Shown here: piece by piece, positions 18,309 to 41,314 of the stretch
Layout: the number at the start of each line of letters is the position of its first letter
Numbering within the stretch: the first letter of the stretch is position 1
IMG/VR virus record: IMGVR_UViG_3300036845_000183
Coordinates: 1 to 55,180 of that record
DNA from: a virus
Lineage: Duplodnaviria; Caudoviricetes
DNA length: 55,180 nucleotides
Reading direction: 5' to 3' (one strand)
The notes under the pieces: model-generated
Database searches by the model: none
Told to the model about the DNA's origin: nothing
The model's input: only the letters and a program-made list of their open reading frames with translations
Made by a program: the position numbers and the translations under genes

Positions 18309-18436
18309 CCCAGCCCCCATGGAAGCCCCAGCCACGGCGTCGGCTTCGATTTCAGGTCTCTCCGAACCAAGCGTACGATCCGGTATGCGTGTCGCGCCAC
18401 GCTAACGGCGCCGATTGCAGCAAGTACATAGATCAT
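18305..18436 (-). CDS. Small membrane-associated protein (ends PTPWLGLPWGLG)
   Basis: GGAGGG SD; ATGA overlap with gcrA stop. Confidence 0.55.
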   Translation of the reverse strand: MIYVLAAIGAVSVARHAYRIVRLVRRDLKSKPTPWLGLPWGLG

Positions 18437-18819
18437 ACAACCCTCCGTGAAACGTGTTGATGAAATGCGCAGTAGCGAAAATCTATCGTTGACAGACCGC
18501 AGAACATCGCACCAACCGGCCACTTGCACATGCCGTCTTTAAGCTGGTCGAAGGTCACGGCGTCATCGGGTGGCGGCTCCACAGGGACGATTTTCTTTGC
18601 CCGCGCCACTACGGGTTTCTTCTCATACACCCGATGTTGATGGCCGCCGAACTTCGTATTCAGCGATCTGATACCGTACCGGCTGCGGAAGCTCATGATG
18701 GCGTTTCGCGTAGTGCCGAGTTCTTTCGCGATGCTGAGGCCGGAGCCACCTTCGGCCGAAAGTTTCGTGACCGCGGACAAGCGGTCGTCGTGCGTCATGT
18801 TTGCCCAGATCATTTTCAA
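18433..18819 (-). CDS. gcrA: GcrA-like cell-cycle transcriptional regulator
   Basis: S...IAKELGTTRNAI HTH and L....CKWPVG..FCG...YCAFH C-terminal motif. Confidence 0.88.
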   Translation of the reverse strand: MKMIWANMTHDDRLSAVTKLSAEGGSGLSIAKELGTTRNAIMSFRSRYGIRSLNTKFGGHQHRVYEKKPVVARAKKIVPVEPPPDDAVTFDQLKDGMCKWPVGAMFCGLSTIDFRYCAFHQHVSRRVV

Positions 18820-25127: not shown

Positions 25128-25453
25128 CCCGATTCGTCGGACACAAGACGGGCTTCAACACCACTGGCAGCAACGATTGCTGCCCGAACGAAATGGGGCC
25201 GCCCAGCACGAAGTTCGGCGGCCGACCTGCCGTGCCTGCCGGGCCGCTCAAGCGCTACCCAGGCGCCACGGCGGATATCAGCAACGGCAATCGCCGGCTC
25301 GCCAAGTCGAAGCACGGGGCCGGCGAGGGCGATGGCGTGGCCTTCAAGACGCATACGGCCTTCGGCTCGGGCGAGAAGGGTTCACCCAGCGGCCGGAAGC
25401 CCGGCGGCATGGGCGGCAAGCGCAGCCGGGACATGTCCGACAACAAGAAATAG
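25124..25453 (+). CDS. Gly/Lys-rich disordered basic protein
   Basis: ORF track, strong codon bias. Confidence 0.7.
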   Translation: MTRFVGHKTGFNTTGSNDCCPNEMGPPSTKFGGRPAVPAGPLKRYPGATADISNGNRRLAKSKHGAGEGDGVAFKTHTAFGSGEKGSPSGRKPGGMGGKRSRDMSDNKK

Positions 25454-25465
25454 CGGGAGGTTGTA

Positions 25466-25882
25466 ATATTTTACCGTCCAGGCGGCACCGCGAACGCGCC
25501 TAATCGTCAGTACGATTATGTATACGTCGATACCATCGGCGGCGCAACCGATTGGCTGCCCATCAACAAGGGCGACACGATCGCGGTGAACATCTGCCGC
25601 GCGTCGATCGCGTTTACGACGCCGGCCGCCAGCAAGGTCACGAAGTCACCCGTTGCCTACGAAGCGCTGATCTTGCTGGAAATGAAAATGTTCGGTGGCG
25701 ACAGTGATTCGGAAGCATGGCCCATCGACAACTGGTCCAATGTCGTTGTTGCCACGGACCGCCGCGCGCATCGCGCCGGCTGGGTGCGGCTGCGGCTCGT
25801 CAACGTCAACAACGCTGACGGTACGGGTGTAGCCATGGCGCTGCAAATCAGTCGGACGGGGGAATCAGGTGCAGTCACGTAA
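25466..25882 (+). CDS. Putative virion beta-sandwich protein, apparent ATA start
   Basis: GGGAGG-TTGTA-ATA; frame open for 40 codons upstream of the first GTG (25586). Confidence 0.65.
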   Translation: MFYRPGGTANAPNRQYDYVYVDTIGGATDWLPINKGDTIAVNICRASIAFTTPAASKVTKSPVAYEALILLEMKMFGGDSDSEAWPIDNWSNVVVATDRRAHRAGWVRLRLVNVNNADGTGVAMALQISRTGESGAVT

Positions 25883-26015
25883 GCCAACTATTGAAAATCT
25901 GGCGGCTGAACTTGACCGCGCAATGGCGACGTTCAATCGCATTACTTTCTGGGTTGTAGTCGGCGGGCTGGCGTCCATGGCCGTCTTGGGAGCCCTGTGG
26001 TATGGCGGGTTTTGA
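25869..26015 (+). CDS. Small single-TM protein
   Basis: Translated by hand; GGGGGA SD. Confidence 0.45.
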   Translation: MQSRKPTIENLAAELDRAMATFNRITFWVVVGGLASMAVLGALWYGGF

Positions 26016-26016
26016 G

Positions 26017-26178
26017 ATGAATGAGCAGTACATCCGCGGCTGCATGAAGTCGCTTGGCGGCGCGATTGATAGTCAAGAAGAAAAAATCGCGCTGGCGGCT
26101 GCGCTGGAATTGTTGACGATCGTGATCGTCGATTTACACCGTATTGCCAACGCGCTGGAGAAACACCACGGGAACTAA
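26017..26178 (+). CDS. Small hypothetical protein
   Basis: Translated by hand; fills gap. Confidence 0.5.
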   Translation: MNEQYIRGCMKSLGGAIDSQEEKIALAAALELLTIVIVDLHRIANALEKHHGN

Positions 26179-26180
26179 CC

Positions 26181-26819
26181 ATGGCAGGCTTCGACAACGG
26201 CACGGCGCAGAGCGGTATTTTCAGCCAGGTCAAGCAATTTGGCCCGATCTTGCGCGGCTTCGGCCCACCAGTGCCGCAGGCCGGCGTCGTTGGTGACGTC
26301 TACATCGATACGCAGACTTGGTTCCTCTACACCAAGCGTTCGCCGGATGCCGGCGGTGACGTAGACCCGTGGGGGCATTACCTCTTTCAGGTGCCGGCGA
26401 CCTACCGTACGGCGCTGAAGTGGTTCACGGTCAGCCAGCCGACCGACGATATCGGCCTCACGGGTGACTACGCGCTGCTGTGGGGTGGCTATTCGAACTA
26501 CGGCCTCCAGCCCTCGATCTACGGTCCCAAGCAGCTCACGGGCTGGCCTGAGAACGGCAACGGCCCCAACGTGCCGATCGCGACGGCCGGCGCCGGTACG
26601 GTGCTTCAGATCGGCCTGGTGGACGAAGGCGCTGCGCTGCCCGACAGCGCGAGCACGCAGCTCATCGTCGTCGGGCTGGTGGACGAATACATTCTTGGCG
26701 TTCCGGTTACGGCAGCCGCCGGCAGCCCGGTAGTTCAGACCGGATTGCGATCAGGACCGGCGCAGGTTGCTGTCGTGCTCAACCCCCTATACACATCCGA
26801 AGATACCCACGCAGTCTAG
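26181..26819 (+). CDS. Tail adaptor-like protein A (G..GD.Y/..YGPK modules)
   Basis: GVVGDVYID, GLTGDY, IYGPK; paralogue of the next gene. Confidence 0.75.
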   Translation: MAGFDNGTAQSGIFSQVKQFGPILRGFGPPVPQAGVVGDVYIDTQTWFLYTKRSPDAGGDVDPWGHYLFQVPATYRTALKWFTVSQPTDDIGLTGDYALLWGGYSNYGLQPSIYGPKQLTGWPENGNGPNVPIATAGAGTVLQIGLVDEGAALPDSASTQLIVVGLVDEYILGVPVTAAAGSPVVQTGLRSGPAQVAVVLNPLYTSEDTHAV

Positions 26820-26828
26820 GAGGCGGCC

Positions 26829-27266
26829 ATTTCAGGGTTCGACAACGGCACGCTTCAGGGTGGGATCTTCGCGCAGGCGAAGCAGTTCGGTTCCGTATTG
26901 CGCGGGCTCGGGCCGCCCGTGCCGCAGGCTGGCGTGGTCGGCGACCTGTATCTGGATTCGCAGACCCGGTTCCTGTATCTGAAGCGTTCGCCCGATGCGG
27001 GTGGCGATGTCGATCCATGGGGGCACTACCTGTTTCAGGTGCCTCTGACCTATGCTGCAACGCTGAAGTGGTTCAGCGCCTCCGCACCGACAAATGATGT
27101 CGGCGTTGATGGCGACTATGCGTTGCTTTGGGGCGGATACCCGAATTACGGGCTCCAGCCCTCAATTTTCGGCCCGCGGGCGCTGGGCGTCTGGCCGTCC
27201 AGCCCGGTGAACGTCGCCGTGACCTTGAATCCTCTGTACACTTCGGAGGATAGCCACGCGCTATGA
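26829..27266 (+). CDS. Tail adaptor-like protein B, paralogue of A, apparent ATT start
   Basis: AGGAGG-CGGCC-ATT TCA GGG TTC GAC AAC aligns codon for codon with ATG GCA GGC TTC GAC AAC at 26181. Confidence 0.8.
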   Translation: MSGFDNGTLQGGIFAQAKQFGSVLRGLGPPVPQAGVVGDLYLDSQTRFLYLKRSPDAGGDVDPWGHYLFQVPLTYAATLKWFSASAPTNDVGVDGDYALLWGGYPNYGLQPSIFGPRALGVWPSSPVNVAVTLNPLYTSEDSHAL

Positions 27267-28570
27267 GCTACAATTCCACCACAGATTTTTTGGGCCTTTG
27301 GCGGAATAACGCCGGCCAAGTCTCAAAAGTCGAGATGCCCGGCCTGGACTACATCGTGGCCGCGCTGGCGCGCGCCGGCCTCCTTGTGGTGTCGGTCTCG
27401 GCGACGGCGCCCGTCGCCAACCAGCCGACCACGGCTTGGCTGCAAACCGCCGTCCCGAGCTTTTCGGGCGAAGGTGTCTTCCAGCTCTGGAACCAAGATA
27501 CCGCTTCATATGCTCCGGCCACGCCCGAGCTGTTCATGGACTTCCTGCAAGCATCGGCGGGTGAGAGCGGCATATCGTGGTGGACGACCACGGGGCCGCC
27601 AATCAACACTCTCGGTCAAAACGGTGACTTGGCGATCCGCCTGGATCTCCCGAACGGCATTTACGGCCCCAAGACCGCAGGTGCTTGGCCGACCACGCCG
27701 ATATCGGGTACTGTAGCAGGATTGACGAGCGCGGAGTTCGACGGCCTGTTTGGCTCCACTCCGGGGCAGTTGATTTACCGCGGCGCTTCTGCTTGGCAGT
27801 CGCTTCCGGTCGGAGGGGGCAATAATACAGTTCTTGCGTCCCCCTTCGGCACCCTACCCGTGTGGGAGAGCTTCTATACATTGCTTGATAATTTGATAAG
27901 CAGTGCGCAGGGCTCCATAATGTTCAGGGGTTCTGCCATATGGCAGCCGCTGCCACCCGGCAGCACTGCAAATCAGTTGTTAGTTACAGGTGGCGCAGGC
28001 GCTAATCCGGCATGGGAAAATCTATCGACGCTTTTCGATGCGACTTTCGGAGGATCCGCACAGGGTAGCATTCTGTATCGTAATGCCAGTGTTTGGGCTC
28101 AACTAGCACCTGGCACCGCAGGCCAACTTCTGACCACGGGTGGCGCAGGCACGAATCCGGCATGGGCTAACTCTCCCAATCAATTTCCATCCGGCACTGT
28201 CATGCTATTCCAGCAGTCAGCCGCACCCACGGGATGGACGAAGTTAGTTGCAGTTAACGACGTAGGACTTCGTATCGTAAGTGGGTCCGTTACTGCGGTA
28301 GGCGGGGTGGCATTCAGCACGGTGTTTGCGCAGACTGCGGTAGGCAATACGACGTTGTCGGTCTCGCAGATCCCTGCACATACTCACCAAGTGGTGGCCA
28401 GCCCCGGCGTCAATGGAACGACGTATGCACCTAACACAGGTGCTAACCAAGGCGCCTCTCCTGCTTCATCCATCACCAGCGACGGCGGTACGGGCGGTGC
28501 GGGTGCTCATGCGCACGCCGTAACTCTAAACTTGTCCTACATCGACGTGATCATGGCGAGTAAAACTTGA
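27263..28570 (+). CDS. Tail fibre 1 with internal repeats and collar-like C-terminal domain
   Basis: Shared MSY...MPGLD anchor; three G.I.(Y/F)R....W..L repeats; FPSGTVMLFQQSAAPTGW, H.H motifs. Confidence 0.85.
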   Translation: MSYNSTTDFLGLWRNNAGQVSKVEMPGLDYIVAALARAGLLVVSVSATAPVANQPTTAWLQTAVPSFSGEGVFQLWNQDTASYAPATPELFMDFLQASAGESGISWWTTTGPPINTLGQNGDLAIRLDLPNGIYGPKTAGAWPTTPISGTVAGLTSAEFDGLFGSTPGQLIYRGASAWQSLPVGGGNNTVLASPFGTLPVWESFYTLLDNLISSAQGSIMFRGSAIWQPLPPGSTANQLLVTGGAGANPAWENLSTLFDATFGGSAQGSILYRNASVWAQLAPGTAGQLLTTGGAGTNPAWANSPNQFPSGTVMLFQQSAAPTGWTKLVAVNDVGLRIVSGSVTAVGGVAFSTVFAQTAVGNTTLSVSQIPAHTHQVVASPGVNGTTYAPNTGANQGASPASSITSDGGTGGAGAHAHAVTLNLSYIDVIMASKT

Positions 28571-30549
28571 TGTCCTATAGCCCGACGACTGATTTTTTCG
28601 CTCTCGTACGCCAGACTTCGGGCGGCGAAGAATTTGCGAGCATGCCGGGCCTCGATATGGTCGTGGCCGCGCTCATGCGCGCCGGCTTGGTTACCTTGGT
28701 GGTCGGGCAGACGGCGCCGATCGTAAATCAGCCAAGTACGGCATGGTTCAAGCCCTCGGTGCCTTCGTGGGTTGCGGAAGGTGTGCTGTTCCTATGGAAT
28801 ACGACCACGCAGCAGTACGAGACTGCGACGCCGCAGCTATGGACCAACATCCTCACGCTGCATGCGTCGTTCGTCGCCGCGGCTGCCACGAGCGATCCGT
28901 TATCCGTCAAGGCAACGGGTGCTCTGGGCGACGGCGTCACGGACGACACCTTTGCCATTCAGACGGCGTTGAATACGTCGAAAAATGTGTTTGTTCCTGT
29001 CGGTACCTACATCGTGTCGGCTACGCTGCAGATGCAGCCGGCCGGAGCAATTCGCGGCTCAAACAGGGACACCGTTCAGATACGGCGCTCGACGGCGTAC
29101 GGTCCTACACTGCAGTGTGGCAGCACTGTGATAGGCGTCAACGCGGGCTCCTGCACTGTCGAGAACTTGTGGTTTTTCCAAGTTACGCAATTCAACAACG
29201 GCCCGAGTTACGTCGCGGGAGTGTCGACGGTCATCCTCAACAAAGAAACGAACCCGCACGTTGCGATTTACAAAGGGCAGAATGTTTTGCTCAACGGTCT
29301 CCGGGCAACCGGTGCCGGCGGCATCAGCATATATGGTTGCACCGCCGCATTTTGCGACAGCCTGTTTGTTAACGGTTGCTGGGATGACAACCAAGTTGGG
29401 CTGCAAGAGTGCTTCGCCAACATCGGCTTTTACCAGTTCACGGATGCCAACAATAACGTTTCGTTCAACACAGAGTGCCGCGTTCGCAGGTGCTATTTGG
29501 GCGGCTTCGGCCACACGCCAAATCAGAATGTGACGATAGGCAACGTGGTCATTTCGTTGCCGGGCAACTTCGGCTCGGCTTCCGGCATTTACTGCAACGC
29601 TTCCGAGGGTTTTGAGGTCCACGACAGTTACATCGGCGGCAACAACCGCAACAACATCATGCTGGACCGACAAGGCATCTTCGGCTTGGTCCGCATCCAC
29701 CATAATTTCTTCGACAGCGCTCGCACAGGCTCCATAAAAATTCAAGCCAGTGCAGCGGGCGGCGGCCCCAGCATTGTTGAGATTGACCACAACGTCTCCC
29801 AGGGTTATGGCTTCGATCAGAGTTTCTTAGTTGTTGCTGATCTCGGTATCGGCGAGCCGGCTTGCGCCAATTTGGACATCAGCAATAACATCGGCCAAGG
29901 GTACAACCAGTGCGCCGTAAGCCTGAGCGGTGTGCGCGGCTTCTCGCACAGCAACAACCAGTGGCGCGACTACAACAAATGGGGCAACACGAACAACGAT
30001 CCGGCTATCAACTCGGGCCTGTACGCCCTCAACTGCACCATGGGAGACAGTTCGAACAACTGCTACGGCGGCGGCACCAACGATCCGTCCGGCGCCAATA
30101 CTTGCCAGTACGGAAGTACGTTCGTCAACCCTACCACTTGCACGGCTTCGCACGAGAACGGCCAAAACTTAGGTTTAATTGTTTTGGGTTTGTCGGGTTA
30201 CGAAAGCAATCTTGACCAGTGGATTGCTTACACCCCGACCGTTTCGTCACAGACAGGCGCCTACGGAGCTGCTTCGGCAACGGGCTTCTACCGGGTGGAC
30301 AGCAACACGGTTCACGTTCACTACCACGTAACAGTTACGGGCGTAGGCACTGCGACAACGGCGTCACTCATAACGCTACCCCTGACGGCTGTCGTACCCG
30401 TGCAGACGGGCTCGGCGCGCGACGAAACGGCTGGCTTCCAGTTGATTTCTTACTGTTCAGACCAAGTGCATCTGTTTCATCAGAAATACGATGCAACATT
30501 TCCGCCTGGCAGTTACAGCGGCAGTTTCACGTATGAAAAGATAAGCTAG
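28570..30549 (+). CDS. Tailspike with right-handed beta-helix (pectate-lyase-3-like depolymerase)
   Basis: SVKATGALGDGVTDDTFAIQTALN...VFVP.GTY; Asn-rich rungs. Confidence 0.88.
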   Translation: MSYSPTTDFFALVRQTSGGEEFASMPGLDMVVAALMRAGLVTLVVGQTAPIVNQPSTAWFKPSVPSWVAEGVLFLWNTTTQQYETATPQLWTNILTLHASFVAAAATSDPLSVKATGALGDGVTDDTFAIQTALNTSKNVFVPVGTYIVSATLQMQPAGAIRGSNRDTVQIRRSTAYGPTLQCGSTVIGVNAGSCTVENLWFFQVTQFNNGPSYVAGVSTVILNKETNPHVAIYKGQNVLLNGLRATGAGGISIYGCTAAFCDSLFVNGCWDDNQVGLQECFANIGFYQFTDANNNVSFNTECRVRRCYLGGFGHTPNQNVTIGNVVISLPGNFGSASGIYCNASEGFEVHDSYIGGNNRNNIMLDRQGIFGLVRIHHNFFDSARTGSIKIQASAAGGGPSIVEIDHNVSQGYGFDQSFLVVADLGIGEPACANLDISNNIGQGYNQCAVSLSGVRGFSHSNNQWRDYNKWGNTNNDPAINSGLYALNCTMGDSSNNCYGGGTNDPSGANTCQYGSTFVNPTTCTASHENGQNLGLIVLGLSGYESNLDQWIAYTPTVSSQTGAYGAASATGFYRVDSNTVHVHYHVTVTGVGTATTASLITLPLTAVVPVQTGSARDETAGFQLISYCSDQVHLFHQKYDATFPPGSYSGSFTYEKIS

Positions 30550-31764
30550 ATGAGCTATTCACCCACTTCTGACTTGCTGGCTTTGCTGCGGCAGACGCCG
30601 GGCGGCATGCGTTCGATACGTATGCCCGGCTTGGACTGGCTTATTTCCGGCATGTCGCGCGCGAACATTTTCAATCTGTGGGTGGCGCAAACGCCGCCAC
30701 CGGTTGCTGCGCTGTCGACAGTGTGGTTCAAGACCGCATTTCCAAACTCGGGAGCCGCCGAAGGTAAGGCCTTCATCTATAACGTCGCTGCAGCACAGTA
30801 CCAGCAAGCCACCCCGCAGCTATGGACTTCCGTTTTTACGAGCGGGTCAATCGACGCAGGCAGCATCACAACCGGCACGCTGAGCCCCGCCAGACTGCCC
30901 GCTTTCGGTTCGGGCGACGTGTCTTTCGCGGCAGCCGGCGGCGCCGGTACGATTGCCATGTCGGCGGTTACGTACGCCAAGATGCAGCTTGAAGGTGCGT
31001 CGTCGCTTTTGGGAAATCCGACAGGCGCACCGGCTACGATCAGCGAAGTTACCTTGGATGGTAGCTTTCTTACTTTCAGCGGCACCAACATCACGCTGGT
31101 AGCGCACGGCATCACATACGGCAAAATACAGAACGTCGCAGCGTCGTCGCTGCTTGGCAACCCGACTGGTGCACCAGCCACGGTTAGCGAAATCACTCTG
31201 GACGCCAGTTTTCTTACGTTCAGCGCCAGCGTCATCACTCTCGTAACGAACGGGGTTACGAATGCCAAGCTGGCGCAGATGGCCACTAAGACCCTCAAAG
31301 GAAACAACACGGGCGGCACTGCAAACGCTGCTGATTTGACGGTATCTCAGGTAAACGCAATGTTAGGCGTTGCGCAAACGCCGGGGCAGGTTTTTCTAAC
31401 GGGTAGCGATGTCGCTCTGAACAACACAGCGAACTATTTCGATGTCATCAACACTGGATCGATCGGCGCTTCAGGCCAAGTGTGGAAAATTACGGCTTAC
31501 GCCTGCGCAGCAGATACCGTTTCCGCAAAGATTAACGTCAGGATATGGGACGGCACCACCGTCTATGCCGAGTCATCGTCATTTGTCGGCGGCGGTAGCT
31601 TCACCAACACAATTCCCGTCATCGCTATCGTGTCGCTTTCGGCCGCTACGACTTTCAAGCTTTCCGCCAAGGACGTTACCTCTACTGGTGGGCTCATACA
31701 GGCTACCGGATTTGCCGGTACCGCCAACAAAGCAACCTGCATCATCGCAGAGAGGATTTCGTGA
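30550..31764 (+). CDS. Tail fibre 3
   Basis: Shared anchor; ITTGTLSPARLP; repeated (V/I)T.(A/G)K.Q...SLLGNPTG. Confidence 0.85.
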   Translation: MSYSPTSDLLALLRQTPGGMRSIRMPGLDWLISGMSRANIFNLWVAQTPPPVAALSTVWFKTAFPNSGAAEGKAFIYNVAAAQYQQATPQLWTSVFTSGSIDAGSITTGTLSPARLPAFGSGDVSFAAAGGAGTIAMSAVTYAKMQLEGASSLLGNPTGAPATISEVTLDGSFLTFSGTNITLVAHGITYGKIQNVAASSLLGNPTGAPATVSEITLDASFLTFSASVITLVTNGVTNAKLAQMATKTLKGNNTGGTANAADLTVSQVNAMLGVAQTPGQVFLTGSDVALNNTANYFDVINTGSIGASGQVWKITAYACAADTVSAKINVRIWDGTTVYAESSSFVGGGSFTNTIPVIAIVSLSAATTFKLSAKDVTSTGGLIQATGFAGTANKATCIIAERIS

Positions 31765-32342
31765 TGGTTGATTTGCATCAGTTGACCACCTCAAATGCAG
31801 TTCGTTGGGGCGCAGCTCATGTCCACCCCGATCTCATCCCGCTGCTTGACCGCGTGGCGTGGCGTTTGGCGGGCGCAAAGACTCGGTACCAGACAGTAGA
31901 AGCCAAGACCGGCATTCCGTGGGCCGTCATCGCCGTAATTCACGAGCGCGAGTCATCGCAGAGCTGGCTGGCTTCGTTGGCGCAGGGCGACCCGTGGAAC
32001 CGGGTATCGATCCACGTTCCGGCGCATCGGGGGCCTTTCACGTCGTGGGAGGCAGCCGCGGAGGACGCCCTAGTCATCTGCCCGCCGCATGCAGCCCATT
32101 GGACCGATTGGCGCATTGGCGGGGCGCTGTGCTTGCTGGAGCAGTACAACGGGCTCGGCTACGCTGCGCATGGCATGCCGTCGCCCTACGTGTGGGCATC
32201 CACCGACAGGTACCAGCGAGGCAAGTACACCGCAGACGGTCACTTCGATCCGAATGCAATAGACCATCAGCTTGGTTGCGCTGCACTCTTAATGCGAATG
32301 ACGTTGATTGACCCGTCGATCGCTGGAGAGTGGCACCCCTAG
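31764..32342 (+). CDS. Endolysin (COG5526-type lysozyme family)
   Basis: IPW.VIAVIHERES, QGDP, LEQYNGLGY, SPYVW, GKY.ADG.FDP. Confidence 0.85.
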   Translation: MVDLHQLTTSNAVRWGAAHVHPDLIPLLDRVAWRLAGAKTRYQTVEAKTGIPWAVIAVIHERESSQSWLASLAQGDPWNRVSIHVPAHRGPFTSWEAAAEDALVICPPHAAHWTDWRIGGALCLLEQYNGLGYAAHGMPSPYVWASTDRYQRGKYTADGHFDPNAIDHQLGCAALLMRMTLIDPSIAGEWHP

Positions 32343-32350
32343 GCTTGATC

Positions 32351-32380
32351 TGCCGTACTTGGTATGACATAAGTACGGCA
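32351..32380. promoter_or_regulatory. 10-bp inverted repeat whose loop carries GTATGACA
   Basis: TGCCGTACTT-GGTATGACAT-AAGTACGGCA. Confidence 0.55.
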
Positions 32381-32408
32381 TCGTCTCAAAACCTTGCAGG
32401 GGTACCCC

Positions 32409-32585
32409 ATGAACTGGAAAGACATTGCGCATTATGGCGCCGCCAGCCTCGCTATTCTGGTCGGCGGCGTGAGTGAACTCGGCATTTCGTTGCCTGGTAT
32501 CGTCGTCAGTGACCCGAAGATGACCATTACCATGGGCATCGGCATTCTGGTCGCCGGCCTCAAAGGCGGCTGGACGGCGCACTGA
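32409..32585 (+). CDS. Probable holin (2 TM)
   Basis: Small hydrophobic ORF next to the endolysin. Confidence 0.55.
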   Translation: MNWKDIAHYGAASLAILVGGVSELGISLPGIVVSDPKMTITMGIGILVAGLKGGWTAH

Positions 32586-32587
32586 AC

Positions 32588-34126
32588 GTGCTACCCTGGG
32601 AGACGCCTGCACCTACCAAAGAGGAAGTGCGGGCGAAGCTCCATGATTTCGATGTTTACCGTGAACGGTTTCTGCGGGTCCGACCGCGACAAGGCGGCGA
32701 CCGTATCCCCTTCGTTCTGAACGCCGCCCAACGCGTGCTGCATGGGAAAGTGGAGGCTGAACGGGCCGCCTTTGGGCTGGTGCGCTGCCTCATTCCCAAG
32801 GCGCGGCGGATGGGCGTCAGCACCTACATCGGCGGTCGCTACTTTCAACGCACCGCAACCGAGTACGGGCGCCGCGCCCAAGTTGTGGCGCACCGATCGG
32901 ACAGCGCTACCAACCTCCACCGTGAAATCAAAGAGTTCTATGAAGGGCTGCCACAATCCATCCGCCCCCATCTCGGCGCGTCGAACGCTCGGGAGTTGAT
33001 TTTTGACAAGCTGAAATCGCTCTACAAGGTTGGTTCGGCCGAAGGTGGCGACATCGGCCGTTCCGATGACTTTCACTTTCTGCACCTATCCGAGGCTGGG
33101 TTCTTCGACAACACGGAAGACTTGTCGTCCGGTTTGCTGCAGACGGTGCAGAACTTACCAGGCACTGAAATTGCCATGGAGAGCACTGGCAACGGGCAAT
33201 CCGGCATGTTCTACAACATGTGCGAGGAGGCGTACCGCCAGAACAACAAAGGACCGTGGCGGCTGCATTTCCTGCCGTGGTTGGTCATGCCCGAGTACCG
33301 CACCGAGGTTCCGTTTGGGTGGAAGGCGCCGCAGGATTTTGAGGATTACGCGCGGTTGCACGGCTGCGACCGCGAACAACTCTATTGGTTTTGGTTACAG
33401 AATTACACCATCGGAACCATGAATGGCGGGCAGCCCGAGAAGATCCACCCTCTTACCCGTCAGGAATACCCGGCCACGTATGCCGAGTGCTTCATGGCCG
33501 ACAGTACGATGGATTTCTTTCCGGCCTCCATGGTTGCCGCAGCGATGGCACGCAAGCCGGCGCCCTCCGCTGGAGCGCTGAAGTTGCTCTGCATAGACCC
33601 GGCTGGCGACGGCCAGGACAAGCCTTTCGTTTGCGATCGCCAGGGCTCTGCGATCGGAGCGCGTCTATGGGGCGAAATAACCAATCGAGATTACAACGTT
33701 CAAGCTGACTGGCTGGTGCAGCAATTCGACAATTTCAGCATGGACGCCATTTTGATCGACGTAACCGGCGGGTACGGAAAAGGACTGAAAGACGCCGTCC
33801 GCTTGCGGATGAAAAGCCGCGGTCCCGAGAAAGTGGTTGCGGTTGATTTTTCATTCGGGGCGCTGAATTCGATACAGTGCGGCAACCGGCGTGCGGAGCT
33901 CCACGACAAATTGCAGCGGTGGCTTCAGGGCGACGTGTCATTGCCGAATGACAAGCTGTTGCAAGAGGAAGCATCGGCCTACAAGTGGGGTACCAGCGGC
34001 TGTCACCGTGACGAAAAGGGCCGGCTGTTCATGACTCTCAAAGAGAAAATCAAGAAAGAACTGAAGCCCGTGCGGTCACCGGACAGATTGGACGCATGCG
34101 CGGTTTCTATGGCAGTAGACGGGTGA
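32588..34126 (+). CDS. terL: Terminase large subunit
   Basis: LNAAQ, KARRMGVST (Walker A), LHLSE (Walker B), ESTGNG, CIDPAG nuclease, NRRAE, SPDRLDA. Confidence 0.93.
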   Translation: MLPWETPAPTKEEVRAKLHDFDVYRERFLRVRPRQGGDRIPFVLNAAQRVLHGKVEAERAAFGLVRCLIPKARRMGVSTYIGGRYFQRTATEYGRRAQVVAHRSDSATNLHREIKEFYEGLPQSIRPHLGASNARELIFDKLKSLYKVGSAEGGDIGRSDDFHFLHLSEAGFFDNTEDLSSGLLQTVQNLPGTEIAMESTGNGQSGMFYNMCEEAYRQNNKGPWRLHFLPWLVMPEYRTEVPFGWKAPQDFEDYARLHGCDREQLYWFWLQNYTIGTMNGGQPEKIHPLTRQEYPATYAECFMADSTMDFFPASMVAAAMARKPAPSAGALKLLCIDPAGDGQDKPFVCDRQGSAIGARLWGEITNRDYNVQADWLVQQFDNFSMDAILIDVTGGYGKGLKDAVRLRMKSRGPEKVVAVDFSFGALNSIQCGNRRAELHDKLQRWLQGDVSLPNDKLLQEEASAYKWGTSGCHRDEKGRLFMTLKEKIKKELKPVRSPDRLDACAVSMAVDG

Positions 34127-34520
34127 CGCGCTTATAAAGCAGGCTGCCGCGCGTTGTTTCATACGCCGCTATGAGTTCTGATGCGATGATTTGCATCGCG
34201 TACGCTTCAAATTCGGAAGACGGTTCTTTCTCCCCAAGCGCTTCGCGGAGGTCTTGCCACACGTGGGCGCCTTCGTGAACTAACAGCGACATGATCGCCC
34301 GAGGCTCTGTCACGGAGGTGTTTATGGTGACCAGGGCGACGCGGCACTTGGTCACTTTCTGCTGAAATAATGAAGTACAGCCCCGATGCGTCGGGTAGTC
34401 ATCCTCCTGCATTTTGGAGGCTCGCATGTAGGTGCGCCACGCTTTTTCGCTGGGGCAGAAGCCGTATTTGTGTGGCAGCCGCCAGCTATCGCACCAGACT
34501 ATTTGGTCACGTCTTGACAT
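34107..34520 (-). CDS. Hypothetical protein with HExxH motif
   Basis: VHEGAHV...E.EAY. Confidence 0.7.
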   Translation of the reverse strand: MSRRDQIVWCDSWRLPHKYGFCPSEKAWRTYMRASKMQEDDYPTHRGCTSLFQQKVTKCRVALVTINTSVTEPRAIMSLLVHEGAHVWQDLREALGEKEPSSEFEAYAMQIIASELIAAYETTRGSLLYKRVTRLLP

Positions 34521-34568
34521 GCTCAGGTACTTACATTACTAGATTTTGTACGTCAACAGGAGCGCGTA

Positions 34569-34706
34569 ATGAGCGAAGAACTACGATCCGAACGGCTGGA
34601 CCTTCGGCTGACGAAGACCGAAAAAAGGAAGTTGCTGGCCAAGGCGAAGGCAACCGGGTGCACCGTGACCAGCATCATTTCCGAGATGATTGCGCAGTTC
34701 AAGTAG
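34569..34706 (+). CDS. Ribbon-helix-helix regulator (45 aa; not in ORF track)
   Basis: AGGAG SD; RLDLRLTKTEKRKL...A...G.TVTSII. Confidence 0.7.
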   Translation: MSEELRSERLDLRLTKTEKRKLLAKAKATGCTVTSIISEMIAQFK

Positions 34707-35291
34707 TCAATGGAACAATAGCGGCAGTCCGCCGAAGCCGCCGACGATCGTTGGCAGGGTCAAGCCGATGCCGCCGGTTGCCGCCACAGCGCCCGTGATG
34801 ATGCCGAGCTGCACCAGCGTATTTTGCACGTCCATGGCCAGCGGGGCGCATGCGAGATTGAGTTGCGCCATCGGGCCGTTGGGGCTCTGCAGGTTAGCCA
34901 GCATGGCTTTGGCATCGCGAGCCTTCTGCAAGGCCTGGAAAATGCCGAGACTCTTGGGAAGTATCCCCTTGATGCCGCTGGCCTGCTGCACGAGCGGAAT
35001 GAGCGCTGTGTAGCACTGGACCGCGGCCTGGTCCGGCGGGTTCTGCGCCTGTGCGTCGGCCAGCGCGTTCTGCAGATCCGTGACGGTGAACTGCTGCAAC
35101 ACGGTCACCGGGTCCGCAGTCGCCGTCGCCTTGGTGATGGGTGCCACCACGGGCGCAGCGATGGACGCCGCCGGGACGGCCGCCATGGCGTCAAAGACGG
35201 ATGCCTTGTGCTTCGTATGACGGGTCGTGGCGGCGTCGGCCAGCGTGCAAGTCGACAAGAGTACGCAGGCGGTAATCAAGTGTCTGAACAT
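34707..35291 (-). CDS. Exported protein with C-terminal hydrophobic tail
   Basis: AAGGA SD; N-terminal signal; C-terminal LGIITGAVAATGGIGLTLP... Confidence 0.75.
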   Translation of the reverse strand: MFRHLITACVLLSTCTLADAATTRHTKHKASVFDAMAAVPAASIAAPVVAPITKATATADPVTVLQQFTVTDLQNALADAQAQNPPDQAAVQCYTALIPLVQQASGIKGILPKSLGIFQALQKARDAKAMLANLQSPNGPMAQLNLACAPLAMDVQNTLVQLGIITGAVAATGGIGLTLPTIVGGFGGLPLLFH

Positions 35292-35302
35292 GGCAGTTCC
35301 TT

Positions 35303-35491
35303 TCAGTAGTACCCGACTGGGCTGTTCTTTTTCGATTTCGGGGGCGGGTTCTCCGCGTCCATCAGCTCGGCTTTCGCACCGTGCAGCCGGGCTTTTGCAT
35401 GGTGGGTACTGGCCATCTTGCGATGGTCATCGGCCGTCATGGTCTTCGGGGCTGCCTTTTTGGCGCCCTTACCACTCGGTTTCTTCGCCAT
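35303..35491 (-). CDS. Small Lys/His-rich basic protein
   Basis: ORF track. Confidence 0.7.
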   Translation of the reverse strand: MAKKPSGKGAKKAAPKTMTADDHRKMASTHHAKARLHGAKAELMDAENPPPKSKKNSPVGYY

Positions 35492-35493
35492 CG

Positions 35494-36036
35494 CTATACC
35501 TTAATGCGCCAGCCGGCGCCGTCGAATTGCGCCTTGCTGCCGCCGATACGGCCCGCATTCTCAGTGTACTTGCCGTTCAGTTCCTTGTTCGCCGGGTCCA
35601 TGCCGGCGTACAGACTTGCGAGCTGCTTGCGGTGCTCCCGGCGGACGTGATCGCCGACAGCCTTCGGCCGCGCCATCAGAAGGGGCCGGAATGCCTTGCC
35701 GTCCTTGTCCGTGCCGGCATGCAGATCGGCGAACAACACCGTCAGCTCCGGGTCTGTGATCGCTTTCCAGCCCTTGTTGTGCGCCGCAGCGATTTCCTGC
35801 GGAATACTGTTGATGACCCGGAACTCCCAGTCCGGGTACCGGTTCTTGTTCGGGATATACAGCTTCAGCGGCCGGTCCAGCACCAAGCCCGCAATGATGC
35901 TGTCGACGTCCTGGGGCTCGCTGAACGGCGATAGCCGCGCCGTAGCGTCGCCGGCACTCGGCGCCGCGGGAATCTCGCCAGGCGGGTTCGGAATGAGGTT
36001 CGGCGTCAAGCCGGATTGAAACGGGTTGCTGCTCAC
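35494..36036 (-). CDS. Conserved head-module protein
   Basis: GTGA overlap; EFRVIN...GWK.I...AGTDKDG...LLMA pattern typical between scaffold and capsid genes. Confidence 0.7.
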   Translation of the reverse strand: MSSNPFQSGLTPNLIPNPPGEIPAAPSAGDATARLSPFSEPQDVDSIIAGLVLDRPLKLYIPNKNRYPDWEFRVINSIPQEIAAAHNKGWKAITDPELTVLFADLHAGTDKDGKAFRPLLMARPKAVGDHVRREHRKQLASLYAGMDPANKELNGKYTENAGRIGGSKAQFDGAGWRIKV

Positions 36037-36269
36037 GTCGCCAATTCCCAGTCGGCTGCCAGTAGGTCGGTCTGCGAGCACAGCCAAGGTACGAAATGGT
36101 TATCTGCCGTTTTCATGTACACGTACGGCAAGCTCATCTTGGAGTGCAAATCCGGGACTTGCAACTTCAGATACATGTTTCTGCCGTTCCAGTTGGCGCG
36201 GCGGACGCAATCACCGTTGTGGAGCTGCTTGACCGCCCACCCGATGGTCTGCTGAGATGTTCGTTCCAT
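36033..36269 (-). CDS. DUF2829 / Tad2-like protein
   Basis: GWAV..L..G..V.R..WNG..MY...PW..SQTD.LA.DW. Confidence 0.85.
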   Translation of the reverse strand: MERTSQQTIGWAVKQLHNGDCVRRANWNGRNMYLKLQVPDLHSKMSLPYVYMKTADNHFVPWLCSQTDLLAADWELAT

Positions 36270-36913
36270 TACTTCTTTCCTTTGGCGCGCTGGTGCGCTT
36301 GGTAGTGGCTTTCGAGCGCCTTCGAAATGAACGATTCGCGCTGTTCCTTCGTGGCTTTCGCGGAAACGAACTTATCCGCCTGCCGCTTGACGTCAGCCTG
36401 AACTTCCCGCGGTGCGTCGGAGAGCTTCGTCCACGGGCCGGACTTGGCACGCGTAGTACCGGCGCCGGCCGTGTCGCTGTCTTTCGGGCCGTCCGTCTTC
36501 TTTGGTTTGGCCGGCGGATCTTGTTCGCCATCCGGGTCCACATCTTCGTCCAGTTCTTCGTCATCTTCCGTCTTGGCCGGCGGCTTGAACTCATCGTCAA
36601 CGGCCTTAATCAGGGCTTCCGCGAACGCCTCCGCGCTGGCGAACTTCGATAGCGTCAAGGCCTTGCCGAACTCGTGAGCCTTCGCCGTTTTCTTCGGATC
36701 GGTGCCGAACCACGGCGCCTTGGTTTCGAGGGCCGCTTTGATTTCGGTATCGCCGAACGGCGGCGCTTTGGGCGCCGTGCTGACCTCCAGCTTGACGATG
36801 TCCGCCATGATCTTGCGCGCGGCTTCCGTGTCGCCATCGGTCACGGCCTTGTCGTGGTGCGCCATCAATCCGGCGCGCGCCTGTTCGCGCATCATCATAT
36901 TGAGGTCGGTCAC
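36269..36913 (-). CDS. Probable capsid scaffolding protein
   Basis: Helical and charged, PWFG.D motif, acidic linker; position downstream of portal. Confidence 0.7.
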   Translation of the reverse strand: MTDLNMMMREQARAGLMAHHDKAVTDGDTEAARKIMADIVKLEVSTAPKAPPFGDTEIKAALETKAPWFGTDPKKTAKAHEFGKALTLSKFASAEAFAEALIKAVDDEFKPPAKTEDDEELDEDVDPDGEQDPPAKPKKTDGPKDSDTAGAGTTRAKSGPWTKLSDAPREVQADVKRQADKFVSAKATKEQRESFISKALESHYQAHQRAKGKK

Positions 36914-37452
36914 TTGATCACCCCGTAAGGATGCGTGTCGGGTTGAACATCGTACCCTGTGCGCTCGCGGATGCTGTCGTATATCGTACGCTCACGGATG
37001 CTATCCCGCCACGGATCGACGGCCGGAGCTTCCGGCGTTGCGGGCTTCGCTGGCTTTGACATGTCCCACTCCAGCGTTACCGGGTCGGGCATGTGTTCGG
37101 CTGGGATGACGCCGATCACGTCGCCGAAGCTGGACACGTAGCGCCAGCCCCCGGTGACTTGGATCTGGCCGCCTTGAACCATGGTGCCTGCGAACGGCCG
37201 GATGACGACCCAATCGCCGATATTGGCCTCCTGCACCTGCAAGCCGTCCGCGTCCTTGTACGAGAACGCCAGCGGTCCCTTGGCCACGATGCGCCCGTAC
37301 ATGACGTTGTGCTGTGCCAGTTCTCTGGTAGCGTCGGCCAGATGCACGCTGCCGACCATCTTCGGCGGCATGGGGATGCGGATAATCACCATGTCTCGCG
37401 TCGGCTGCACCTTCTCATAGGGGGCTTCGAAACCGTGAACGCCGACGCTCAT
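36910..37452 (-). CDS. groES: GroES-like co-chaperonin
   Basis: QP..DMVII...GRIVAKGP.A...IGDWV....AG...D.IGVI. Confidence 0.8.
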   Translation of the reverse strand: MSVGVHGFEAPYEKVQPTRDMVIIRIPMPPKMVGSVHLADATRELAQHNVMYGRIVAKGPLAFSYKDADGLQVQEANIGDWVVIRPFAGTMVQGGQIQVTGGWRYVSSFGDVIGVIPAEHMPDPVTLEWDMSKPAKPATPEAPAVDPWRDSIRERTIYDSIRERTGYDVQPDTHPYGVIK

Positions 37453-37679
37453 TTCAGCTCCTGTTCAAAGGCAAGTCGCACGGCCGACGCCGGGGCGGTA
37501 AGTAGACTTTCAAGGTCATGGTACGCCGCCGCCCGCCCCTGCGTTGTCGGGTCCACCGAGACTCCCCCCAGGAACTGCTGGACCGCCCCCGCCTGCCGGC
37601 GGCGCAGCACCTCCACCAGCGCCTTGGTCTCCGGGCTGTTGAGCCATTCCGTCAAGCCCGCCCCCCGCACCAGCCACAT
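37449..37679 (-). CDS. Small head-module protein
   Basis: GGAGG SD; EWLNSPETKAL; overlaps portal tail. Confidence 0.65.
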   Translation of the reverse strand: MWLVRGAGLTEWLNSPETKALVEVLRRRQAGAVQQFLGGVSVDPTTQGRAAAYHDLESLLTAPASAVRLAFEQELK

Positions 37680-39459
37680 TGCCCGCCTCCTGCATCATCA
37701 TTTGTACAGCTTGCTCTAACTGAGCCATTTGGAGCAGTGCCGTACGATTGTCAAGCATGCCGCCGCTGGCTTCGACCAGATTTTTCAGCGCCTGCGTGAG
37801 CTGCACCGCAACGGCGCCCGTAACCTTGATCTTTTCGGACTGCTGCTTCATCAAGCCGATTGCGCCTTGCATCTTTTCGTGCGGCGTCGCCTGGGGCTGT
37901 TGCGGCGGCGCAATCAAGTCCTCTGGGTTTGATATCCGAAGCGTTTGCAGCAGCCGCAACCCGACTTTTTGAGGGTTGAATACCACCGGTAGCTCTAGCA
38001 GTTCCTTGTATACGCCAGCCAGCGCACTGCGGTGCATCTCCGTCGCAAGTTGCGGGTCCGCAGTGATCGCGATGCCAGCGGCCTGCGATACCGACACGCC
38101 ATCAGGCAGCATGTCGTAAGCATCGGCCATCCGCACGAACTGGCGAATTTCTTGCGTCAGGGACGACACGAGCCGGCGGTGCACTGCCGATTGAACCTGC
38201 GTCCCGCTGTCGATCAGTCCCTTGGCCAGTGTCGCTGTCATGGATGCCGGGGCGTTCTCCATGAGGTTGAGCGTACCGGCCAGGCGATCGCCCAGCGTCA
38301 TCATTTTTTCGAGCACTTGGACGGAGCCCGCGGAAACTGACTTGACCGGAAACATGGTCGTTGAGTCGGCGAGCGGGCGGCCCTCAAGTGGGAGGAAATT
38401 CATTCGGTTGTTTTTTAGTTCAACCTTATCGGGCACCCCAATTCCAGGGCTGCTCGCGATGCCGCCGTTCTGTGCTTCCGATTGCGCGGTGTCCACGATC
38501 GACGCAAGCAAACCGTCCGCGGAGCTTTCAATACGGTGCAGCAACTTTCCGAAACCGATCGGCAGGAAACCACCTTTCGGGTCCGGTAGCATGCGGTACG
38601 GGTAGAACCGCTGTACGGGGTTGAAGAATAGCGCATCGTTGGTATCGACGACCGTTTTCTTCGTCCATCGTGGCGTAATCTTGACGACTTCGGCCGTATC
38701 ATCGCACGAAATTACGATGGTCCACGGCTCGTCAATTTCATCGCCGTCCAGGTCCAACCACAGATCGGTCTTGTAGAATTTCTTCGGTGCCTGCGGGTCC
38801 AGGTCGTCAAACTTCGGGTCGTAGTCAATCCAGTGCCCGCGTTGAATTGATCGTTCGATCTCGTAAGGGTAGCGCTCAAACCGGAGCGTGATACGCGGCG
38901 CCCGCTCAATCGAACGCACGTTGGCGTTGATGATGACTTCCTGGAACGTACGAAACCACGAATGAAACTCGCGGTCGTCCACATCAAACTCTCGTTCGCG
39001 CCATGCCAAGCCGGTAACGGACATGTGAACAATTAGCGGATCGGTATCAAGTAGCCAGTTCGGGTCCGCAGTGCGAAGTTGGCTTGAAACCCAGTCCGCC
39101 AGCTTTTCGCCGCCGGGTTCGCTGGCGCGGGCCAGATCAGGTTCGCCAAGTAGCGCGTCGGTAGCGCGGGCCGAAAACTGAATGACGGCCGATAGCGTCA
39201 TTTCGGTAGCTGGTGGCGGCTCCTCTCCGGCGCCTTCCTGTTCGCGATTCTCCGGCTTGGCGTTGCCGTGATCGGCTTCGACGCTGTCCAGATAGCCTTG
39301 CGCTTCGCCGGCCCAATCCGACATGCTGCTTTCGTCGATACCGATCAGCTCAATGATGTCGGTGGCGAGTTTCCGGCGTTCGTCGGCGTCCAGCTTTTCA
39401 GCCAGATTTTTGAACGTTTCGGGTTTGCTCAGGTCGAACTTAAGAACCGGAGGATGCAT
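37516..39459 (-). CDS. Portal protein
   Basis: 647 aa; D..S...W, AVIQFSARA, DLDGD...EP, GF.PIGFG.LL, VHRRL; Gln/Gly tail. Confidence 0.88.
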   Translation of the reverse strand: MHPPVLKFDLSKPETFKNLAEKLDADERRKLATDIIELIGIDESSMSDWAGEAQGYLDSVEADHGNAKPENREQEGAGEEPPPATEMTLSAVIQFSARATDALLGEPDLARASEPGGEKLADWVSSQLRTADPNWLLDTDPLIVHMSVTGLAWREREFDVDDREFHSWFRTFQEVIINANVRSIERAPRITLRFERYPYEIERSIQRGHWIDYDPKFDDLDPQAPKKFYKTDLWLDLDGDEIDEPWTIVISCDDTAEVVKITPRWTKKTVVDTNDALFFNPVQRFYPYRMLPDPKGGFLPIGFGKLLHRIESSADGLLASIVDTAQSEAQNGGIASSPGIGVPDKVELKNNRMNFLPLEGRPLADSTTMFPVKSVSAGSVQVLEKMMTLGDRLAGTLNLMENAPASMTATLAKGLIDSGTQVQSAVHRRLVSSLTQEIRQFVRMADAYDMLPDGVSVSQAAGIAITADPQLATEMHRSALAGVYKELLELPVVFNPQKVGLRLLQTLRISNPEDLIAPPQQPQATPHEKMQGAIGLMKQQSEKIKVTGAVAVQLTQALKNLVEASGGMLDNRTALLQMAQLEQAVQMMMQEAGNVAGAGGGLDGMAQQPGDQGAGGGAAPPAGGGGPAVPGGSLGGPDNAGAGGGVP

Positions 39460-39465
39460 GTTTTG

Positions 39466-40206
39466 TCATACAACTTTCTTGGCTGCGGTGTCAACGACGG
39501 CTTGGCAGAAGGCAAGCATCTCGGCTTCGGGAAGTTCGTGCTTTGCCAGATTGTACCAGTTGCAGACGATTTGCACATTTCCGCGGATGTAGCCCTTCGT
39601 GCTGTCGATTCGATCAATTGAAGGTGCAAAAGGGTGCCGGCGCAGTTCTGGATGCGGTGCCAAGTCGAACAAAAAGCCGGTTCGAGGGCAAGTACCGGCG
39701 GCAACGAGAACATAGATGTCATCAAAAATGAGGTCGAACTCTCGATTTTCTTTCACTGCACGATTACGCGCGCCGTGCAGTAGCATCCCGGCGCGGCCTT
39801 GCACTGTGGCATAGCGAGCAGCGCGCCACGCTTTGTCTTGCCCCGTCTCTCGATAGCGTGCGGTCGCGGCTGCCTGAGAGGCCTTCCCTTTTTCGCTTGC
39901 GTTATACTTCGCACTGGCTCTGCTCTGTGCTGTTAGGTATTCGCGGTCTCCTTTAGCAACCTTGGCAGCGTGGCGGCGACGTTGGTATTCATTCGCACGT
40001 TCCGAATTTTTGCTTTGCCAATTTGCTGAGCGTTGTTTTGTACGTGCTTTAAAATTTGGATCTGTCGCGTACCGCTCTTTAAGTCGAGCGCTATTTTCCG
40101 CAGACTTGCAAGCTTTGCATTTTAGCTTCCACTTTGGAAAGAGCGACAGCGATTTTTCTTGGTTGCACGTACTGCAAACTTGTGTTTCTTCTACTGAATT
40201 TGACAT
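39466..40206 (-). CDS. HNH-like (His-Me finger) homing endonuclease
   Basis: CSTC..K...CKAC; PSIDRIDS.KGY..GNVQIVC..YN.AK; lower GC than flanks. Confidence 0.8.
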   Translation of the reverse strand: MSNSVEETQVCSTCNQEKSLSLFPKWKLKCKACKSAENSARLKERYATDPNFKARTKQRSANWQSKNSERANEYQRRRHAAKVAKGDREYLTAQSRASAKYNASEKGKASQAAATARYRETGQDKAWRAARYATVQGRAGMLLHGARNRAVKENREFDLIFDDIYVLVAAGTCPRTGFLFDLAPHPELRRHPFAPSIDRIDSTKGYIRGNVQIVCNWYNLAKHELPEAEMLAFCQAVVDTAAKKVV

Positions 40207-40292
40207 TTTAGCCCCCCTTTGATATTTTGCGTCATCATCGATCGCGGACACTTATTAGCATCAGGCCAGTAAGATGTCAATAGGAGGTTGTC

Positions 40293-41225: not shown

Positions 41226-41234
41226 TGGCTCCGT

Positions 41235-41314
41235 CGCCCTACTTGGGCGTTTCCTCCCCAGACTTAGGGGCCTCCCGACTAGCAAATTGGCTGACCGGAG
41301 GCCCCTCTTTTTCT
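41235..41314 (+). terminator. Terminator after the capsid gene, preceded by a small hairpin and a TTTCCTCCC tract
   Basis: AGGGGCCTCC...GGAGGCCCCT-CTTTTTCT. Confidence 0.75.

Follow-up and report, generated by a model that had tools for sequence, protein, structure and literature searches.

A probable ATT start codon and its strong Shine-Dalgarno sequence in the tail-fibre region of a phage genome

Gene B of the Caudoviricetes virus record IMGVR_UViG_3300036845_000183 raises a simple question: where can translation begin in a reading frame that offers no ATG, GTG or TTG ahead of its conserved codons? The window analysed here is the whole record, 55,180 bp long, estimated as complete (100%), with a G+C content of about 59% and 70 open reading frames (ORFs) in our codon-usage gene map. 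B comes after its longer paralogue, gene A, which amounts to B plus an insert of about 65 residues. Between the stop codon of A (TAG 26817) and the conserved codons none of the three canonical starts occurs in the B frame, the first being the TTG at 26898. Our comparison indicates that B is very probably translated from the ATT at 26829, by near-cognate initiation driven by a Shine-Dalgarno (SD) sequence, and the same signature is present at two further genes of the window: U, whose aligned first codon is ATA, and C, a capsid gene whose aligned first codon is ACG.

The junction of genes A and B

The anatomy of the junction is read directly from the DNA. The frame between the two genes is TAG GAG GCG GCC ATT, A and B sharing one frame, and the hexamer AGGAGG overlaps the stop of A (Table 1). 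BLASTP aligns A and B with 92 of 125 identities in the N-terminal part and 16 of 22 in the C-terminal part (E 3e-71). The preliminary description of this DNA, which had set the ATT five nucleotides behind AGGAGG and opposite the start codon of the paralogue, is confirmed as written.

The same description held that the 23 codons ahead of the TTG are conserved at the protein level, and the constraint on these codons is indeed observed. Among the 22 codons that follow the ATT, 15 specify the same residue as in A, six of them through a different synonymous codon, and synonymous differences at identical residues argue for protein-level selection on the 5′ codons of B. In an alignment of 41 family members, G3, G12, K18 and G21 are invariant and F4, D5, G7, T8, Q10, Q16 and Q19 are at least 90% conserved, all of them upstream of TTG 26898. 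The B frame is intact, with 81% identity to its relative in locus L005, and P0001, which at 97% identity is the closest homologue of B among the collected proteins, has valine, encoded by GTG, as its first residue exactly at the position of the ATT.

A check of the letters against reads had been proposed, and a second assembly now agrees with the record. One soil-metagenome DNA run, here called X1, contains 98% of the sampled words of the window, and its Logan contigs carry the same letters, with no ATG at 26829-26831. A 502-nt contig spanning 26759-27260 shows 0 differences at a word depth of 41.8, the contig or contigs over 39431-40532 likewise show 0 differences at a depth of 41.5, no variant is listed in this run for 25300-41300, and the B, U and C sites are all letter-identical. 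As the window itself may come from the sample of X1, this agreement excludes a slip of the assembler but not an artefact of the library; the latter is ruled out by 25 further non-canonical starts on other contigs. No RNA sequencing run containing the stretch is listed.

As a separate observation, one X1 contig tracks the window up to 26810 and continues with 255 letters of different sequence, which suggests that a co-occurring relative has a different gene after A.

Table 1. Features of the A-B junction and of the U and C loci, in window coordinates
Feature	Position	Strand	Remarks
SD of U, GGGAGG	25455-25460	+	5 nt before ATA; in-frame stop of the upstream gene, TAG, at 25451-25453
Gene U	25466-25882	+	138 amino acids; aligned first codon ATA 25466
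Gene A	26181-26819	+	212 amino acids; ATG start; TAG stop at 26817-26819
SD of B, AGGAGG	26818-26823	+	overlaps the TAG stop of A
Spacer CGGCC	26824-26828	+	5 nt; among relatives the sequence varies, the length is always 5
ATT, proposed initiation codon of B	26829-26831	+	would be decoded as formylmethionine
Gene B	26829-27266	+	145 amino acids; tail-fibre region; TGA stop at 27264-27266
TTG picked by the ORF finder	26898-26900	+	23 codons past the ATT; rejected
Gene upstream of C	39466-40251		on the strand opposite to C
Sigma-70-like promoter	40200-40228	+	TTGACA, 17 nt, TATTTT; 10/12 matches; TG before the second hexamer
SD of C, AGGAGG (in TAGGAGG)	40282-40287	+	5 nt before ACG
Gene C	40293-41225	+	310 amino acids; Mu-gpT-like major capsid protein; aligned first codon ACG 40293

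Start codons and Shine-Dalgarno sequences in three gene families

The proposal of an ATT start had rested on one paralogue; it now extends to 43 relatives and to the signature at U and C. The relatives of B were taken from IMG/VR (43 loci), and the genomes that carry the three families form a clade of soil phages of about 52 kb. When the codon opposite the ATT is read from the alignment to the window, the 43 B genes, the window's own included, begin with ATG (30), GTG (4), ATT (4), ATC (4) or GTT (1). The state is therefore polymorphic and not fixed, with nine non-canonical and 34 canonical starts. GGAGG lies exactly 5 nt upstream of all nine of the former and of 0/32 of the latter; two ATG loci (L041 and L042) were dropped from this and the pooled counts because one alignment began only at residue 12, and a separate alignment places their ATG correctly. 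The nine spacers are CGGCC, CAGCC, TTCCG, CGAAA, CAGCA, CTATA, TTGCG, CGGCT and CGATA. Four canonical B genes do have a GGAGG upstream, at a distance of 14 nt, as part of the codons for the conserved AED at the C-terminus of A. Of the 31 canonical relatives with an adjacent A, 25 place the start of B between −4 and +3 nt from the stop of A (ATGA, TGATG and similar), which by its sequence is a translational-coupling layout without an SD. On a tree of B the nine non-canonical cases need eight changes, at least four of them forced, and they are clustered no more than shuffled labels (248/500).

Gene U was spotted by a scan for GGAGG combined with the codon-usage map, in which the coding signal starts well before a canonical codon, and the same holds for C. 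The first canonical start in U is GTG 25586, 40 codons downstream of the ATA, and relatives of U start with MFYRPGG exactly at the position of ATA 25466. The 38 U starts comprise 18 ATG, nine TTG, seven GTG, three ATT and one ATA, so that 4/38 are non-canonical, and the three ATT cases (loci L027, L034 and L045) each have TAGGAGG followed by 5 nt.

The identity of C as a Mu-gpT-like major capsid protein follows from a match to Pfam family PF25209, Phage_capsid_4 (E 1.9e-8; 35.3 bits, cut-off 27), and from the atlas, where 30/30 hits fall in clusters of Mu-like gpT major head proteins (score 0.98). A profile search of the PDB with C returned 0 hits, and the AlphaFold2 (AF2) model, built from a shallow alignment, has a mean predicted local distance difference test (pLDDT) value of 33.5. 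C is 84-92% identical in 80 other viral loci, these being the ones used out of 106 matching IMG/VR stretches. The start survey covers 79 genes with that of the window, two loci lying too near a contig end to be readable, and finds ATG in 35, GTG in 18, TTG in 13, ATT in 11 and ACG in two (the window and L054), hence 13/79 non-canonical. All 79 genes keep QVIDRSLQ immediately behind the start, and AGGAGG plus 5 nt precedes 13/13 of the non-canonical starts. In the window the next canonical codon is TTG 40314. At 10 of the 13 non-canonical loci there is an in-frame TAG before C, itself part of TAGGAGG, preceded by only 0-45 open codons and no real ORF, and in L054 and L096 an upstream in-frame TTG or GTG occurs only at or before the promoter hexamers. 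Since C is the first gene after a promoter-like site, its neighbour lies on the other strand and QVIDRSLQ is kept, the locus points strongly to de novo initiation at or next to the SD.

Taken over the B, U and C families (26 non-canonical and 132 canonical starts, 158 in total), the association of start class with GGAGG at 5 nt is all-or-none: GGAGG occupies positions −10 to −6 at 26/26 non-canonical and 2/132 canonical starts, or 24/24 and 2/99 when only distinct 20-nt contexts are counted. Both canonical exceptions are TTG, and 0 ATG starts have GGAGG there. Within the C family the mean SD duplex energy runs from −6.6 kcal/mol for ATG through −7.2 for GTG, −7.7 for TTG and −10.6 for ATT to −11.7 for ACG, and the AGGAGG of the window with its 5-nt spacer reaches about −10 to −12 kcal/mol, all computed with a generic anti-SD that may not be that of the host. 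When the window and the complete sequences of five relatives were searched for non-canonical in-frame codons that come after GGAGG and ahead of the first canonical one, only the U, B and C families were returned; at the remaining GGAGG sites an ATG, GTG or TTG comes 6-8 nt later. Folding of 100 nt of RNA around the three starts gave z values of −1.41, +1.42 and −0.12, that is, no significant structure.

Turnover of the start codon is repeated. On a DNA tree of the 79 C genes, built with the first codon excluded, the non-canonical state needs 10 changes, of which well supported branches force at least nine; start codon changes of all kinds number 22. Nine phylogenetically independent C pairs differ in start class, and the SD changes along with it in 8-9 of them and against it in 0 (sign test, median p 0.004). 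The intermediates observed so far combine TTG or GTG with GGAGG; none combines ATG with it.

Initiation at the ATT and the rival explanations

In the mechanism that we consider very probable for B, the AGGAGG overlapping the stop of A would pair with the 3′ end of 16S rRNA and hold the 30S subunit with its P site over the codon 5 nt downstream, where AUU would be read by initiator tRNA as a near-cognate of AUG. In AUU, AUC, AUA or ACG initiator tRNA would find two matching bases out of three, and rejection by initiation factor 3 (IF3) would be offset by the long SD duplex. The protein would then begin with (formyl)methionine and not isoleucine. A weak codon would thus be compensated by the strongest possible ribosome-binding site, the same trade being made at U with ATA and at C with ACG, and B and U may in addition be reached by re-initiating ribosomes that have terminated on the upstream gene, 9-12 nt away. 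Relatives use other combinations, namely ATG with a weak SD or with coupling, GTG or TTG with a GGAGA-type SD, and ATT or ACG with AGGAGG, and selection seems to keep the product of codon strength and SD strength. From these comparisons we infer initiation at the ATT itself, the N-terminal methionine and the level of expression.

A sub-variant of this explanation accepts the ATT as the start and has the ribosomes come mainly from the TAG of A by termination and reinitiation, which would tie the output of B to that of A. The short stop-to-start gap of canonical relatives is the classic coupled layout, a stop is found at most five codons upstream in 7/9 non-canonical B loci and 4/4 U loci, and in TAGGAGG the SD overlaps the stop. 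Against such coupling, the upstream stop of L027 and L045 lies in another frame or overlaps with the start, and at C the same SD, 5-nt spacer and ATT or ACG occur with nothing translated upstream, which indicates that coupling is not required for the mechanism. We regard coupling as the principal supply of ribosomes as rather unlikely, though deserving of some weight. The preliminary description had offered another alternative, an A-B fusion by read-through of the in-frame TAG. In its full form B would have no start of its own and be made only as part of a fusion of about 360 residues, through TAG 26817. A and B do lie in one frame with a single TAG between them, and the in-frame layout is repeated in L011, L029 and L044 (TAG) and in L010 (TGA); the phase is, however, a matter of geometry, TAG, GAGG and 5 nt adding up to four codons. 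In relatives the stops vary and the phase is broken: L045 has the stop of A in a different frame, L035 has a pair of in-frame stops (TGA, then TAA nearest the start), the stop of A and the start of B overlap out of frame in 18 relatives, and another gene stands between A and B in L027 and L023. The window contains no tRNA gene (ARAGORN, 0 in 55 kb) and hence no phage suppressor tRNA. An A-B tandem is seen in 0/19 longer homologues (294-335 amino acids), of which 16 match only the first 86% of B and three (P0121, P0128 and P0139) had their sequence read. In A and in B alike, the last 22 residues form a conserved free end. Nor does read-through account for a GGAGG that is invariant and always 5 nt away while the letters of the spacer vary, and it is no possible explanation for the start of C, which has no upstream gene in the same frame. 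As a route to B it is unsupported and very improbable.

Still less probable is a start at TTG 26898, which would yield a protein of 122 residues and make the upstream similarity to A a relic of duplication. This TTG is the first canonical start in the B frame, but it has no SD before it, the leucine codon there is not a start in relatives, and its use would delete 23 conserved residues, four of them invariant, that show synonymous variation. The least probable of all is that sequencing or assembly produced the ATT in error, or that B is a recent pseudogene. The read check is not independent in so far as the sole run containing the DNA may be the source sample; on the other side stand the second assembler's 0 differences at about 42x with no variant listed, the shared signature of non-canonical starts on 25 other contigs, and a B frame that is intact and conserved like that of its relatives.

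Several points weigh against near-cognate initiation as set out above. The efficiencies of near-cognate codons in Escherichia coli seem too low for a major capsid protein, and for this reason ACG 40293 (2/79 loci) and the GTT of L011 (1/43) are the weakest links; GTT may be a short-lived step between GTG and ATT. ACG 40293 is probably the start of C but is the least secure of our calls, and the alternatives may be ATT 40302, 14 nt after the SD, or TTG 40314, both at poor SD distances. An in-frame stop at most five codons upstream in 22/26 non-canonical cases leaves room for some read-through or coupling, although TAGGAGG plus 5 nt produces such a stop by geometry. Part of the repeated origin may also reflect a single 5′ leader module moved by recombination, and not fresh mutation, in view of homologous 5′ regions across genomes that are not sisters: about 30 of 36 upstream bases are the same in the window and L054, yet their C coding regions are not sisters.

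A +1 frameshift into C from the short ORF between ATG 40274 and TGA 40306 was also considered and rejected, as 13 nt separate the SD from the one place where a shift could happen and the QVI codons upstream of this place are conserved in the frame of C.

Setting, precedents and meaning

No family was found for A, B or U in PHROGs and Pfam, and a tblastn search with B against 50,697 reference phage records gave no match. The AF2 model of B (pLDDT 78.9; predicted template modelling score, pTM, 0.75) is a small beta-rich domain, with predicted disorder in the 15 conserved residues at its N-terminus. Searches for structural relatives of this model found no fold, the best Foldseek match in the PDB being an iridovirus capsid chain (E 5.9e-3) and the best wide match of VIA-align having a Z of 4.1. 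Public proteins related to B number 523 of 79-254 amino acids and 19 of 255-2000 amino acids. P0065, P0107, P0128, P0139 and P0121 (241-335 amino acids) carry an A- or B-like N-terminal module followed by unrelated C-terminal domains, and the junction in the longer proteins comes directly after the conserved end ...NPLYTAED.H. Some public relatives of B are misannotated, P0098 being truncated at the N-terminus and P0093 extended to an upstream GTG.

A and B directly precede two consecutive tail-fibre/tailspike-like genes (27263-28570 and 28567-30549) that share an N-terminus (MSYNSTTDFLGLWRNN and MSYSPTTDFFALVRQT, respectively). The second contains a pectate-lyase-like domain (PF12708, E 1.4e-9), and a segment at 27572-27715 resembles residues 79-131 of B (E 6.9e-5). 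Our best guess, based on the position before the fibre-like genes, the shared stretch and the B-like modules that head varied longer proteins, is that A and B may be an attachment or anchor module of fibre-like proteins.

In most relatives A directly follows U, the stop of one adjoining the start of the other, and in the window two small ORFs, one of about 49 residues with a hydrophobic stretch and one of 53-58 residues, lie between them (25869-26178). In L027 an HNH-like gene of about 167 amino acids (L027:2511-3014, ending ...HVDHVVALAKGGSNNPDNLQLLCPTCNMSKG...) is inserted between A and B in another frame and overlaps the ATC start of B; it looks like a homing endonuclease insertion. L023 has a different gene of 70 amino acids at the A-B junction (L023:2779-2991), ending at TAG.

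Elsewhere in the window, two paralogous DUF2800/PD-(D/E)XK nuclease genes are located near the ends of the record at 665-1648 (−) and 53050-53979 (−) (E 1.6e-24 and 1.5e-20), and a gene resembling the Thoeris anti-defence protein Tad2 lies at 36036-36269 (−) (PF11195, E 2.5e-22). No translation-factor domain, IF3-like or other, was detected among 47 further ORFs of the window. A domain like the GcrA cell-cycle regulator at 18436-18819 (−) (PF07750, E 8.7e-8) weakly hints at an alphaproteobacterial host, and one relative of B, as a second host hint, sits in a Planctomycetota metagenome-assembled genome bin. Two scans of genome contigs for a host or prophage, which used the capsid protein in one case and the A/B alignment in the other, gave no relative.

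Initiation at AUU is known to be repressed by IF3 in E. coli. A preprint by Hecht et al. names infC, which encodes IF3, and pcnB as the two confirmed AUU-initiated genes of that species, reports that AUU, AUC and AUA give 1-2% of the yield of AUG and other codons 0.1-1%, and describes a methionine-initiated protein from ACG. B resembles infC and pcnB in that AUU would be read by initiator tRNA as a start that is weak by design and that standard gene callers miss, and differs in that those are conserved low-level cellular regulatory genes, infC being autoregulated by IF3, whereas here phage structural genes including the major capsid gene are concerned. Unlike in infC and pcnB, the codon is not conserved in the phages: close relatives can have ATG, GTG or TTG in its place, and there are cases of ATA, ATC, ACG and GTT as well. 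In Staphylococcus aureus, a 2026 report in Nat Commun (PMC13009471) lists cvfC1 (AUU), ccpN (AUA) and infC (AUA), states that all non-canonical AUU and AUA starts there have extended SDs, and puts reporters of non-canonical starts at about 10% of AUG. Those cases are host regulators with a conserved codon, supported by ribosome profiling and reporters, whereas ours are phage late genes with frequent switching and comparative evidence.

For cellular genomes, Belinky, Rogozin and Koonin 2017 (PMC5622118) describe a weak statistical trend for the weaker codons GUG and UUG to go with stronger SDs and a single change from AUG to AUU in 61,358 ancestral AUG starts; set against these figures, the phage families have 26/158 non-canonical starts, an all-or-none link to the SD and a turnover far above that of cellular genomes. 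A GTC start repressed by IF3 has been described for sigR of Streptomyces in a 2017 mBio paper (PMC5472188), a precedent for a GUN start other than GUG that is relevant to the GTT of L011; sigR is a single actinobacterial regulatory gene, and the GTT is a putative start on one contig.

Read-through has its own model in the A1 protein of phage Q-beta, an extension made by programmed read-through of a stop codon. The A-B pair is like A1 in having two in-phase frames with one stop between them, and unlike it in that the phase is not conserved, the window has no suppressor tRNA, fused homologues are lacking, and the junction has an SD and a near-cognate start. Phage SPP1 uses only AUG, GUG and UUG as starts. 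No phage precedent for near-cognate starts was found in the literature searched, which is weak evidence of absence as subscription journals were outside its coverage.

In kind, then, a near-cognate start with a strong SD is known. What is unusual is its frequency (three of about 70 ORFs in one phage, and the 26 starts in three families), its lability (at least nine changes among C genes at least 84% identical), its use in structural genes and its all-or-none coupling to GGAGG. Gene callers limited to ATG, GTG and TTG shorten the proteins, by 23 residues in B, 40 in U and seven in C. The three orthologous families form a natural series of the trade-off between start codon and SD, in which compensation is directly testable. 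A start of C at ACG or ATT would be hard to square with the efficiencies of 0.1-2% measured in E. coli, so that either far less initiation is enough or fidelity differs in the host or during infection. A possible but doubtful reading is that start proofreading is relaxed in this phage clade or its host, such that AGGAGG would let AUU, AUC, AUA, ACG and GUU drive high-level synthesis of structural proteins. If so, the start codon and its SD would be an interchangeable, fast-evolving pair, and translation of the late genes might depend on the balance of IF3 to ribosomes in the infected cell.

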